Assembly (NCBI RefSeq): GCF_024502345.1
Contig: NZ_JALDNN010000001.1
Strand: one strand, 5' to 3'
DNA: 64,000 nucleotides
Source: Escherichia coli
GTDB lineage: Bacteria; Pseudomonadota; Gammaproteobacteria; Enterobacterales; Enterobacteriaceae
Made by a program: the position numbers and the translations under genes. Of this stretch, positions 20,214 to 61,290 are shown in pieces (position 1 is the stretch's first letter; each line of letters begins with the position of its first letter). Under the pieces are notes generated by a model. The model searched no databases and was not told where the DNA came from. It saw only the letters and a program-made list of their open reading frames with translations.

Positions 20214-20379
20214 TGTTTAATCCTTTTGGTTTAAACCAGATGAAGCATCTTACGCTTACGCCAAAAAAGAAAGCAATTAACGGTGTATGACTTTGCAGAT
20301 AATTGTGACAAAGCTCTCTATTGACGTAATCCCAGACTTATAAGGGAGATACTCGCATTGGTGTGCGCTCACGACAGGT

Positions 20380-20412
20380 AAAAAAAAACCTGCCAGCGAT
20401 GGCAGGTTTTTT
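20380..20412 (-). terminator. Rho-independent terminator of typA
   Basis: Hairpin CCTGCCAGCGATGGCAGG (20389-20406) flanked by an A-run and a T-run; on the minus strand the stem is followed by a U-run. Confidence 0.8.
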
Positions 20413-20429
20413 ATAACTAAAAAACGAAA

Positions 20430-22253
20430 TTAATCGTCTTTCGGTGCGCGGTTAGCGCGACGACGATCGTTTTCCGTCAGGTGACGTTTACGAATACGGA
20501 TAGAGGTCGGAGTCACTTCTACCAGTTCGTCATCATCGATGAACTCCAGAGCTTGTTCCAGAGTCATGCGGATAGGCGGAACCAGAACAACAGCTTCGTC
20601 AGTACCGGAAGCACGCATGTTGGTCAGTTTCTTACCGGTCAGGCAGTTTACAGTCAGGTCGTTAGAGCGGCTATGAATACCGATAATCTGACCTTCGTAA
20701 ACTTCTGCACCGTGACCGAGGAACAGCTTACCGCGATCCTGCAGACCGAACAGCGCGAACGCGACCGCTTTACCCTGACCGTTAGAGATCAGTACACCGT
20801 TCTGACGCTGACCCACTTCGCCCGGACGTACGTCGTCGTAGTGGCTGAAGGTGGAGTACAGCAGACCAGTACCGGAAGTCATGGTCATGAACTCAGAACG
20901 GAAGCCAATCAGACCACGGCTTGGGATCACGTAGTCGAGACGTACGCGGCCTTTACCGTCTGGATTCATGTTTTTCAGGTCGCCTTTACGTTCGCCCAGC
21001 GCCTGCATTACAGAACCCTGATGCTGTTCTTCAACGTCCAGAGTCACGTTTTCATATGGCTCTTGTTTACGACCGTCGATTTCACGGAAGATAACTTTCG
21101 GACGGGATACCGCCAGTTCGAAACCTTCACGACGCATGTTTTCGATCAGAACAGACAGGTGTAGTTCGCCACGACCAGAAACGCGGAACGCATCAGCGTC
21201 TTCGGTTTCTTCTACGCGCAGCGCAACGTTGTGTACCAGTTCTTTGTTCAGACGATCCAGGATCTGACGAGACGTTACGAACTTACCTTCTTTACCGCAG
21301 AACGGCGAGGTGTTAACGCAGAAGAACATAGAAACGGTCGGCTCATCAACGGAGAGTGCCGGCAGCGCTTCAACGTTTTGCGTGTCGCAAACGGTGTCAG
21401 AAATGTTCAGTTCGCCAAGGCCCGTGATCGCAACGATATCGCCAGCTTCCGCCAGATCGGTTTCGATACGTTCCAGACCGAGGTGGCCCAGCACTTTACC
21501 GACTTTCGCGTTGCGGGTTTTGCCTTCGCTATCGATGATAGTAACCTGCTGGTTCGGCTTCACTTTACCGCGCTTGATGCGGCCAATGCCGATAACGCCA
21601 ACATAGCTGTTGTAATCGAGCTGAGAAATCTGCATCTGGAACGGACCGTCAAGGTCAACGTCCGGCGCAGGAACGTGGTCAACAATCGCCTGGTACAGCG
21701 GGGTCATGTCTTCCGCCATATCTTCGTGGTCCAGACCCGCGATACCGTTCAGCGCAGAAGCGTAAACGATCGGGAAGTCCAGCTGCTCGTCGGTCGCGTC
21801 GAGGTTAACGAACAGATCGAATACCTGATCCACAACCCAATCAGGACGCGCGCCAGGGCGGTCAACTTTGTTGATAACAACAATCGGCTTCAGGCCGTAA
21901 GCAAACGCTTTTTTGGTTACGAAGCGCGTTTGCGGCATCGGGCCGTCAAATGCGTCAACCACCAGCAGCACTGAGTCTACCATGGACATTACACGTTCAA
22001 CTTCACCACCGAAGTCGGCGTGCCCCGGGGTATCAACGATGTTGATACGGTAATCATTCCATTTGATAGCGGTGTTTTTCGCGAGGATGGTAATCCCACG
22101 CTCTTTCTCCAAATCGTTGGAGTCCATCACGCGCTCTTGGGTTTCGGCACGAGAGTCGAACGTACCGGATTGTTGGAGCAGCTTGTCTACCAGGGTGGTT
22201 TTACCATGGTCTACGTGCGCGATGATGGCGATATTACGCAATTTTTCGATCAC
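20430..22253 (-). CDS. typA: Ribosome-binding translational GTPase TypA/BipA
   Basis: 607-aa ORF with G1 motif AHVDHGKTT; EF-G/LepA-like. Confidence 0.95.
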
Positions 22254-22404
22254 AACTTTGCCTCAGGCATTAGAAATAGCGCGTTATTGTACACGGATTA
22301 ATCGCACTACAAAACAGGATCACAAACATCCTCCGCAAACAAGTATTGCAGAGTCCCTTTGTGATCGCTTTCACGGAGCATAAAAAGGGTTATCCAAAGG
22401 TCAT

Positions 22405-22494
22405 TGCACCAATATAGTGCTTAATGTTTCCATTGAAGCACTATATTGGTGCAACATTCACATCGTGGTGCAGCCCTTTTGCACGATGGTGCGC
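22405..22494 (+). promoter_or_regulatory. glnA enhancer: NtrC (NRI) binding sites
   Basis: TGCACCAATATAGTGCT (22405-22421), GCACTATATTGGTGCA (22438-22453), TGGTGCAGCCCTTTTGCACGATGGTGCGC (22466-22494); each matches the TGCACC-N5-GGTGCA NtrC consensus. Confidence 0.85.
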
Positions 22495-28652: not shown

Positions 28653-29159
28653 TTAGTTGCCCCGCAGCAGACGCATCATGTCTTCTTGCTTCTCGTCTTC
28701 TTCCTCTTCTTCGTCATCGTCATAAGAGAGGCCGAGTTTCTGCATCAACTCATCAATACGATCCAGTTTAGCATCCACCCAGGATTGCTCTTCGGCACTC
28801 AGGGTTTCGCCTGCTTCCAGACGTTCCAGCAGCGCATCCAGACGCTCATCCGTTTCCAGTAATTCCAACTCCGCCTGCGGTGAAAGCATAGGTTTCTCAC
28901 TCTTCGGTTTGTGCTGTTTGGTGACTTTTTCAGTCACGCCCAATGGAATAGGGGTTTTACTGCCAATACGTGGATCTTTTGGTGCGTTCTGGCCTTTGCT
29001 GCCTGACGTGGTGTTACCGCCCGCTGCGCGGCTGCCCGGCGCATGACCACGACGTTTTTTCTGACGCTTGCGGTCACGTGCTTCCTGATTCAGCTCTTCG
29101 CGCGTTTTGCGACGCGCTTTTGCATGACCTTTGCTGCGTGATGGTGAAGATGGTTTCAT
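28653..29159 (-). CDS. yihI: Der GTPase-activating protein YihI
   Basis: Start set at the Met of [18 protein letters not shown]...; basic N-terminus and acidic C-terminus ([10 protein letters not shown]). Confidence 0.9.
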
Positions 29160-29227
29160 AATGGTTCGTCTTTTAGCCGTTTTATTCAGTATAGATTTGC
29201 GGCGGAATCTAACAGAAAGCAAGCAAA

Positions 29228-29470
29228 GAAAAAAGGCGACAGATTACTCTGTCGCCTTTTTTCCTGACTCATAACCCTTAACGGGTCTTACAATCCTTGC
29301 AGGCCGCCAACACACCCTGTTTTTCCATTAGCCGGAACAATCCGTGTTGATTCCATTTCCGTTTAATTACGTCTCCGGACGTTTGTCTTCCTGACAATCC
29401 TCTGTCTTCGCCTCCTGGCGCTCCTGACCCTCATCCTGAGTCATTGTTCCTGTTAGCGTCCTCGCTCTAT
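29228..29470 (-). ncRNA. csrC: CsrC sRNA (CsrA-sequestering)
   Basis: Minus-strand transcript beginning ATAGAGCGAGGACGCTAACAGGAACAATGACTCAGGATGAGGGTCAGGAGCGCCAGGAGG... with more than a dozen GGA triplets, ending in hairpin GGCGACAGAGTAATCTGTCGCC plus U-run. Lies in the yihI-engB intergenic region; sequence recognised as CsrC. Confidence 0.85.
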
Positions 29471-29740
29471 GGGTGCTACTTTACGCCTTTGCTTTAAACA
29501 AACAATCAACCGCCATCAGTATTTGCACATTTTCAGAGTTTTATATAAAAGCAATTAACTGATTTATATAGCTTATTTGACATGCATCGCAGAATTTTCT
29601 CTGCTATTTCGCATAAAGACTATCGGCAATGTCTCACAAAGCGTATGGCTTTTACTTACAACGCTCACGCCGAAAAATCCGCCTTTTATTATGGTTCAGG
29701 TATAATCGCCGCAAAGCTTTGACTGACGGAGACGACCGCT

Positions 29741-30373
29741 TTGACTAATTTGAATTATCAACAGACGCATTTTGTGATGAGTGCGCCTGATATTCGCCAC
29801 CTACCTTCCGATACCGGAATTGAAGTGGCTTTTGCAGGCCGTTCCAACGCAGGTAAATCCAGCGCGCTGAACACGCTGACTAACCAGAAAAGCCTGGCTC
29901 GTACCTCAAAAACCCCTGGACGCACCCAGCTTATCAACCTGTTTGAAGTGGCTGACGGCAAGCGTCTGGTTGACTTGCCTGGGTACGGTTATGCGGAAGT
30001 CCCGGAAGAGATGAAGCGCAAATGGCAGCGCGCGCTCGGCGAGTACCTCGAAAAACGTCAGAGCCTACAAGGTCTGGTAGTGCTAATGGATATTCGCCAT
30101 CCGCTGAAAGATTTGGATCAGCAGATGATTGAGTGGGCGGTAGACAGCAATATCGCCGTGTTGGTACTGCTGACCAAAGCGGACAAACTGGCAAGTGGCG
30201 CACGTAAAGCGCAATTGAATATGGTGCGTGAAGCGGTGCTGGCGTTTAACGGTGATGTGCAGGTTGAAACGTTTTCTTCGCTGAAGAAACAAGGCGTGGA
30301 CAAGCTGCGGCAGAAACTGGATACCTGGTTTAGCGAGATGCAGCCTGTAGAAGAAACGCAGGACGGCGAATAA
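29741..30373 (+). CDS. engB: Ribosome biogenesis GTP-binding protein EngB (YihA)
   Basis: 210-aa [24 protein letters not shown]... with P-loop GRSNAGKSS; frame begins at a TTG codon. Confidence 0.9.
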
Positions 30374-30498: not shown

Positions 30499-30607
30499 TA
30501 AAAAACGCCCCAGTCATTACTGACTGGGGCGGCTAAAATATTCAGCCAAATCCGATTACGTGAAGTAAAAGGTCTGAAAGATAGAACATCTTACCTCTGT
30601 ACCCTAC
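30499..30607 (-). ncRNA. spf: Spot 42 sRNA
   Basis: Minus-strand 109-nt sequence GTAGGGTACAGAGGTAAGATGTTCTATCTTTCAGACCTTTTACTTCACGTAATCGGATTTGGCTGAATATTTTAGCCGCCCCAGTCAGTAATGACTGGGGCGTTTTTTA, ending in a terminator hairpin plus U-run; recognised as Spot 42. Confidence 0.92.
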
Positions 30608-30754
30608 GCGACTAACTTTACTCTTTTTTGTTCAGTTCAGAAAGCACTTTTTGTAATTTTTTTTCAGTTGTTGCATAGGAATTTCTAATAGCCATCACAA
30701 AACGTGACAGCTTATGTTGCTTACTTACGAAAAAAGGGCATGTTCAGGCGAATC

Positions 30755-39702: not shown

Positions 39703-39822
39703 ATGCCTGGCAGTTCCCTACTCTCGCATGGGGAGACCCCACACTACCATCGGCGCTACGGCGTTTCACTTCTGAGTTCGGCATGGGGTCAGGTGGGACC
39801 ACCGCGCTACGGCCGCCAGGCA
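39703..39822 (-). rRNA. rrfA: 5S ribosomal RNA
   Basis: 120-nt reverse complement matches the E. coli 5S sequence (TGCCTGGCGGCCGTAGCGCGGTGGTCCCACCTGACC...CTGCCAGGCAT). Confidence 0.95.
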
Positions 39823-39914
39823 AATTCTGTTTTATCAGACCGCTTCTGCGTTCTGATTTAATCTGTATCAGGCTGAAAATCTTCTCTCATCCGCCAAAAC
39901 ATCTTCGGCGTTGT

Positions 39915-42817
<2,903 letters not shown>

Positions 42818-43000
42818 TCACAACCCGAAGATGTTTCTTGCGATCCATCATCGTGTTGCGAAAATTTGAGAGACTCACGAACAACTTTCGTTGTTCAGTG
42901 TTTCAATTTTCAGCTTGATCCAGATTTTTAAAGAGCAAAACTTCGCAGTGAACCTTTTCAGGTACACTCTGAAGTATTTTTTATTTAATCACTACAGAGA

Positions 43001-43076
43001 TGGTGGAGCTATGCGGGATCGAACCGCAGACCTCCTGCGTGCAAAGCAGGCGCTCTCCCAGCTGAGCTATAGCCCC
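43001..43076 (-). tRNA. alaT: tRNA-Ala (UGC), 16S-23S spacer tRNA
   Basis: Reverse complement GGGGCTATAGCTCAGCTGGGAGAGCGCCTGCTTTGCACGCAGGAGGTCTGCGGTTCGATCCCGCATAGCTCCACCA. Confidence 0.95.
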
Positions 43077-43118
43077 ATAACATGTAGTTAAAACCTCTTC
43101 AAATTTGCCGTGCAAATT

Positions 43119-43195
<77 letters not shown>

Positions 43196-43263
43196 GTAGA
43201 GGTTTTACTGCTCATTTTCATCAGACAATCTGTGTGAGCACTGCAAAGAACGCTTCTTTAAGG

Positions 43264-44805
<1,542 letters not shown>

Positions 44806-58278: not shown

Positions 58279-60521
<2,243 letters not shown>

Positions 60522-60534
60522 TTCCGGTCTCCTG

Positions 60535-61290
60535 TCAGAACTTATAACCACGATGCAGCGCCACAACCCCTGCCGTCAGATTGTAGTAGTCGACACTTTC
60601 GAATCCGGCATCCTGCATCATGGCTTTCAGGGTATCCTGATCGGGATGCATACGGATGGATTCTGCCAGATAACGGTAGCTGTCGGCGTCGTTCGCGACC
60701 AGTGAGCCAATACGCGGCAGCACATGGAAGGAGTATGCATCATAGGCTTTGCTCAGCGGCTCGATAATTGGCTTCGAGAACTCAAGCACCAGCAGGCGGC
60801 CGCCGGGTTTCAGCACGCGATACATTGAACGCAGTGCTTTATCTTTGTCGGTGACGTTACGCAGACCAAACGAAATGGTGATGCAATCAAAGGTGTTATC
60901 CGGGAACGGCAGCGCCTCAGCGTTCGCCTGAACATACTCAACGTTGCCAATCACACCGATATTACGCAGCTTCTCGCGGCCCATTTTGAGCATGGATTCA
61001 TTGATATCAGCAAGGACCACTTTGCCAGTTTCTCCGACCAGGCGGGAGAATTTCGCTGTCAGGTCGCCGGTGCCACCAGCCAGATCCAGCACGGTCTGCC
61101 CACGGCGTACGCCGCTGCAATCAATCGTGAATCGCTTCCACAAACGATGAATACCAAATGACATCAAATCATTCATGACATCGTATTTTGATGCCACGGA
61201 ATGGAAAACGTGGGCGACCATATCCGCTTTTTGTTCCTTCGCGACGGTCTGAAAACCAAAGTGCGTCGTTTCTTGTGACTTATCCACCAT
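60535..61290 (-). CDS. ubiE: Ubiquinone/menaquinone C-methyltransferase
   Basis: 251-aa ORF with SAM-binding motif [10 protein letters not shown]. Confidence 0.92.

Follow-up and report, generated by a model that had tools for sequence, protein, structure and literature searches.

The window, meaning the whole 64-kb stretch of E. coli DNA analysed here, contains an intergenic region of 581 bp (29160..29740) between the genes yihI and yihA/engB, and on its minus strand this region almost certainly carries csrC, which encodes the E. coli small RNA CsrC. The preliminary description had reported a gap of 580 bp between divergent genes; the divergence stands and the length is corrected by one base pair. 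The genes of the locus, as judged from sequence comparison, are arranged as follows.

28653..29159, minus strand, yihI (Der GTPase-activating protein), ATG at 29159..29157, downstream of csrC on the same strand; from the ORF list and annotation
29225..29470, minus strand, csrC, CsrC small RNA; from a full-length RF00084 match and 245/246 identity to b4457
29741..30373, plus strand, yihA/engB (ribosome-biogenesis GTPase), divergent and upstream of csrC; from the ORF list and annotation

Orthologous csrC loci were collected in one exact-pattern scan of species-representative genomes, which yielded 40 loci from Escherichia, Salmonella, Citrobacter, Enterobacter, Lelliottia, Leclercia, Pseudocitrobacter, Superficieibacter and Huaxiibacter; the alignment used below comprises 41 sequences. 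In all 40 loci csrC is followed on its own strand by yihI, and engB is found divergent and upstream in 36 of them, the other four having too little upstream DNA. The order yihA <- csrC -> yihI is the published arrangement and is regarded as diagnostic for csrC homologues, the csrB gene being adjacent to syd (PMC1488887). The YihI protein encoded in the window has 168 amino acid residues, one fewer than in K-12, with a one-codon indel and nearby substitutions relative to K-12 at its N-terminus (about 29130..29150, minus strand).

The whole window was scanned with Rfam 15 at gathering thresholds. A covariance-model search had been named beforehand as the check on the assignment, and it returned a match to the CsrC family RF00084 (gathering score 61) at 29217..29470 on the minus strand, covering model positions 1-255 of 255 with 277.9 bits and E = 1.2e-87. 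CsrC was the best-scoring member of clan CL00106, overlapping lower-scoring matches to other families of the clan being suppressed by the tool. When the region 29100..29800 was rescanned permissively, the only matches besides CsrC were a 41-bit plus-strand match to the terminator and sub-threshold noise. In K-12 MG1655 the ncRNA csrC (b4457) is annotated at 4051036..4051281, between yihA and yihI; it aligns to window positions 29470..29225 with 245 of 246 bases identical, and both the 5' end and the neighbouring genes agree. An RNA of about 243 nt at 29228-29470 had been proposed earlier: its 5' end at 29470 proved exact, while the 3' end is moved to 29225, giving 246 nt, the former end at 29228 being located just past the U-run and 3 nt off the annotated K-12 3' end. 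The length of CsrC in the literature, which we take to be 245 nt, compares with 246 nt in the RefSeq annotation of K-12.

The segment 29225..29470 contains 14 GGA triplets on the minus strand, nine of them as AGGA, and two on the plus strand. Nowhere else in the 64-kb window, whichever strand is read, do 245 nt contain as many GGA; minus-strand stretches of this length average 3.3 (sd 1.9), and the runners-up, found in rRNA and yihI, have 10-12. Dinucleotide-preserving shuffles of the CsrC RNA contained 8.8 +/- 1.9 GGA, with 20 of 2000 reaching 14; since the shuffles already give 8.8, much of the GGA excess is a consequence of the G/A-rich composition. Placed on the Rfam consensus structure, six GGA fall in hairpin loops (five of them as AGGA), five in single-stranded linkers, two in the long central hairpin and one at the base of the terminator, in agreement with the earlier claim of more than a dozen GGA, many of them as AGGA in predicted loops. 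Of the 14, 13 are each retained in 39 or more of the 41 enterobacterial copies, the exception, at the base of the terminator, being present in 27; each orthologous copy has 13-16 GGA in total. The triplets at RNA positions 56, 71 and 80 were fixed by the pattern used for collecting the orthologues, therefore only the other ten represent independent evidence of conservation. In the ViennaRNA ensemble the GGA bases had a mean probability of being unpaired of 0.61 vs 0.36 for other bases, and shuffled sequences gave 0.52 +/- 0.09, with 23 of 200 reaching the observed value; because this energy-model accessibility is not significant against shuffles, the placement of GGA relies on the Rfam consensus structure. 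The number of CsrA-binding sites published for CsrC is also 14 (PMC8151843), equal to the GGA count obtained here.

The CsrC RNA (245 nt) folds at -87.4 kcal/mol, corresponding to z = -6.8 vs shuffles. Its structural elements, all read from the minus strand, are the following.

29369..29466, minus strand, five short 5' hairpins with GGA in each loop and GGA-bearing linkers between them (RNA 5-16, 28-46, 51-62, 65-78 and 89-102; Rfam consensus)
29274..29349, minus strand, a long, imperfect hairpin in the centre (RNA 122-163), followed by two small hairpins on its 3' side (RNA 171-181 and 185-197; Rfam consensus)
29226..29265, minus strand, intrinsic terminator with an 18-pair stem, consisting of an A-run, GGCGACAGA, a loop, UCUGUCGCC and a U-run (terminator scan)

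The strong terminal hairpin with U-tract noticed in the preliminary description was thus recovered as the 18-pair stem at 29265..29226, followed by UUUUUU (29234..29229). It corresponds to the Rfam consensus helix 208-243 and is nearly invariant in the 41 orthologues, with 99% of cells paired. In the central and small 3' hairpins, which hold the GGA at RNA 128, 145 and 175, 77-100% of cells are paired across orthologues. Over the alignment as a whole the consensus structure is 90.4% paired, vs 39-47% when the 3' partner columns are slid by 1-3. Compensatory changes were seen in helix 1, where 21 sequences have AU and 20 have GC, and in helix 5, where 26 have UA and 14 have CG. Covariation is thin, only three pairs having double changes at an average column identity of 84% among the orthologues, because these are close relatives and because MAFFT introduced a register shift in hairpin 2 of the Enterobacter group. 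The minimum-energy fold of the single sequence has, in addition, a long-range helix (RNA 6-172) absent from the Rfam consensus; it also uses a hairpin UUGUC-AGGAA-GACAA, likewise not in the consensus, in which GGA-80 is looped instead of GGA-71. The terminator (29222..29265) is symmetric, of the form A6-stem-loop-stem-U6, and its plus strand matches model positions 203-244 with 41 bits; in principle the terminator could stop transcription both ways, and no plus-strand gene converges on it.

Upstream of the RNA, three elements were located on the minus strand.

29478..29483, minus strand, candidate -10 hexamer TAAAGT (-13..-8), from its position and its conservation in 34 of 38 orthologous upstream regions
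29621..29638, minus strand, predicted UvrY-binding inverted repeat TGTGAGACATTGCCGATA (-168..-151), an exact match to the published footprinted sequence
29655..29660, minus strand, TGTAAG half-site (-190..-185), 16 bp upstream of the inverted repeat, an exact match (PMC4682653)

At E. coli csrC, phospho-UvrY was reported by Zere et al. to footprint an 18-nt imperfect inverted repeat with this very sequence, with a TGTAAG half-site 16 bp upstream of it, and ChIP-exo crosslinking spans -223..-143 and -49..+32 (PMC4682653). Among the 38 orthologous upstream regions, 28 have the left half of the repeat, TGTGAGA, and 31 have TGTAAG. A strict sigma-70 consensus promoter scan of 29100..29800 gave no match, and for this reason the -10 hexamer was assigned from position and conservation; TAAAGT is likely the -10 element of csrC, accompanied by a poor -35. 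The poor -35 and the empty sigma-70 scan would fit an activator-dependent csrC promoter.

The single difference between the window and K-12 csrC is found at RNA position 144 (window position 29327, minus strand), which is U here and A in K-12. In the 3' arm of the central hairpin AGGA thus becomes UGGA, with the GGA kept. Among 5,422 complete E. coli genomes, 2,515 (46%) have the identical 60-nt segment around this position, so that the csrC of the window represents a common natural allele; U144 is also shared with E. whittamii and other Escherichia. As a lesser alternative, the U/A polymorphism may change the capacity for CsrA between E. coli lineages. Of 5,426 complete E. coli genomes, 5,425 contain the intergenic query 29161..29740 (580 bp), 4,318 of them with at least 99% identity; O157:H7, O145 and many other strains match it at 100%.

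With regard to coding potential, the gap had been described as having none, and this view was upheld: its only ORFs are of 47 aa or shorter, and the 39-codon ORF among them is not conserved. This ORF, at 29278..29397 on the minus strand, begins with TTG; in 14 of 41 orthologues a stop follows after three codons, one orthologue, from Leclercia, has lost the start codon, and in others the frame is shifted by indels. Third-position bias was sought in it over the 41 orthologues and none was found, the variable columns being distributed 17/23/21 by codon position. In many complete E. coli genomes PGAP/RefSeq places a pseudo-CDS over csrC with no ncRNA feature at the position; in NZ_AP018488, for example, a pseudo 'hypothetical protein' (frameshifted, with an internal stop) covers roughly 29278..29444 on the minus strand and csrC is not annotated as an ncRNA. 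Since the ORF is not conserved across Enterobacteriaceae, this pseudo-CDS is an annotation artefact.

The placement of a CsrC small RNA between yihI and engB, proposed from the letters alone, was borne out by the Rfam match, the identity to K-12, the synteny and the UvrY site, and the other readings of the region have to be weighed against these. That the segment might be another member of the CsrB/RsmB clan, such as a copy of CsrB, or a chance GGA-rich purine stretch, is suggested by the lower-scoring CL00106 matches that overlap csrC and by the number of GGA that shuffling already produces; however, CsrC scores best in the clan with a match to the full model and differs from K-12 csrC at one base, the yihA/yihI synteny is specific to csrC as opposed to the syd-adjacent csrB (PMC1488887), and individual GGA positions are kept across genera, so that this reading is already refuted and retains practically no probability. 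It is likewise extremely unlikely that the internal 39-codon ORF yields a small protein, which would make CsrC a dual-function RNA like Spot 42 with SpfP. The ORF does appear in the ORF list, PGAP places its pseudo CDS over the same stretch, and the neighbouring spf encodes SpfP in the K-12 annotation, but the truncations, the lost start and the frameshifts among orthologues, the even spread of variable columns over codon positions, the TTG start and the fact that PGAP itself flags the CDS as broken all speak against it. The small-protein candidate was therefore rejected for lack of conservation and of codon-position bias.

A further reading would take the GGA-rich stretch for a long 5' leader of yihI, read through from a shared promoter, with yihI as a CsrA-controlled mRNA. 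The two genes are indeed on the same strand, 65 nt apart, in all 40 loci; nevertheless, the nearly invariant and very strong terminator, with its 18-bp stem and six U, stands between them, the K-12 annotation gives csrC as a discrete ncRNA, and Northern blots detect a discrete full-length CsrC in E. coli (PMC8151843). Such a leader in place of a small RNA is accordingly very improbable, and some read-through into yihI would add to the role of the small RNA and not replace it. The preferred assignment, that of csrC, concerns an already-known gene, characterised since 2003, and no novelty is attached to it.

Several other RNA features were observed in the window. The Spot 42 gene (spf; RF00021, 122.8 bits) is located at 30499..30617 on the minus strand, between polA and yihA and one gene from csrC; in K-12 a 15-aa dual-function peptide, SpfP, is annotated inside it, and a UvrY/SirA ChIP-exo signal near spf was reported by Zere et al. 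(PMC4682653). The Rfam 'Erse' match at 59916..60167 on the minus strand (316 bits) equals K-12 esrE (b4707) and is situated wholly inside the 3' part of the ubiJ CDS (ORF 59916..60566), ending on the ubiJ stop and overlapping the ubiB start, so that the esrE 'sRNA' coincides with a protein-coding region. An ES222 match (22335..22442, minus strand, 129.9 bits) is positioned upstream of bipA, in the intergenic region between it and the divergent glnA, and an STnc370 match (20377..20445, minus strand, 54.9 bits, just at threshold) straddles the stop codon/terminator region of bipA. A complete rRNA operon occupies 39705..44805 on the minus strand, with 16S, tRNA-Ile, tRNA-Ala, 23S and 5S; its position matches that of K-12 rrnA, and a StyR-44 match (42825..42933) is found in it just upstream of the 23S gene.

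If the csrC of the window functions as described for E. coli, its transcription would be activated by BarA-UvrY and indirectly also by CsrA, ppGpp/DksA and the helicases DeaD and SrmB (PMC4682653, PMC7652899), without the IHF requirement known for csrB (PMC4682653). According to work relayed second-hand in PMC7591399, CRP-cAMP may compete with UvrY and thereby repress E. coli csrC. CsrC, like CsrB, would offer many high-affinity GGA sites by which CsrA is sequestered from its mRNA targets (PMC7652899, PMC8151843). The RNA would be short-lived, CsrD, stimulated by unphosphorylated EIIA-Glc, exposing it to RNase E (PMC7652899, PMC7591399, PMC5876332), and it would act beside the larger CsrB, the loss of either being compensated by the other (PMC7652899, PMC5876332). 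PMC7652899 credits the first description of CsrC to Weilbacher et al. 2003.

Among related systems, E. coli K-12 CsrC (b4457, RF00084) is the same gene: it shares the 5' end, the terminator, the neighbours, the UvrY site and the 14 GGA, and differs at one base. The CsrB RNA of E. coli (CL00106) is alike in having many GGA that sequester CsrA, in its dependence on BarA-UvrY and in its decay by CsrD/RNase E (PMC7652899, PMC5876332), but it is larger and has 22 GGA (PMC7652899). The csrB gene needs IHF and possesses a near-perfect UvrY palindrome, whereas csrC has a weaker repeat and no need of IHF (PMC4682653), and a sequence search started from either RNA cannot find the other (PMC1488887). RsmY, RsmZ and RsmX of Pseudomonas and RsmB of Pectobacterium are similar in being activated by GacA/UvrY and in sequestering the protein through GGA hairpin loops; they differ from CsrC in sequence family, genomic context and genus.

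The distance from the CsrC 3' end (29225) to the yihI ATG (29159) is 65 nt (29160..29224). The consensus promoter scan passed none for yihI in this spacer on the minus strand; a TATACT hexamer at about 29187..29182 (minus strand) is a possible yihI -10. The 65-nt spacing and the csrC -> yihI order in 40 of 40 enterobacterial loci gave rise to the idea that a fraction of csrC transcription reads through the terminator and contributes to yihI expression, which we consider improbable. Were it true, BarA-UvrY signalling would be linked through this read-through to the Der GTPase-activating protein and hence to ribosome assembly, and yihI would have a GGA-rich leader ahead of it.

The csrC case may be considered as a quality check, in which a known regulatory RNA was recognised from raw sequence. 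The RNA itself is biologically important, CsrC belonging to the pair of RNAs by which CsrA activity is set in E. coli.
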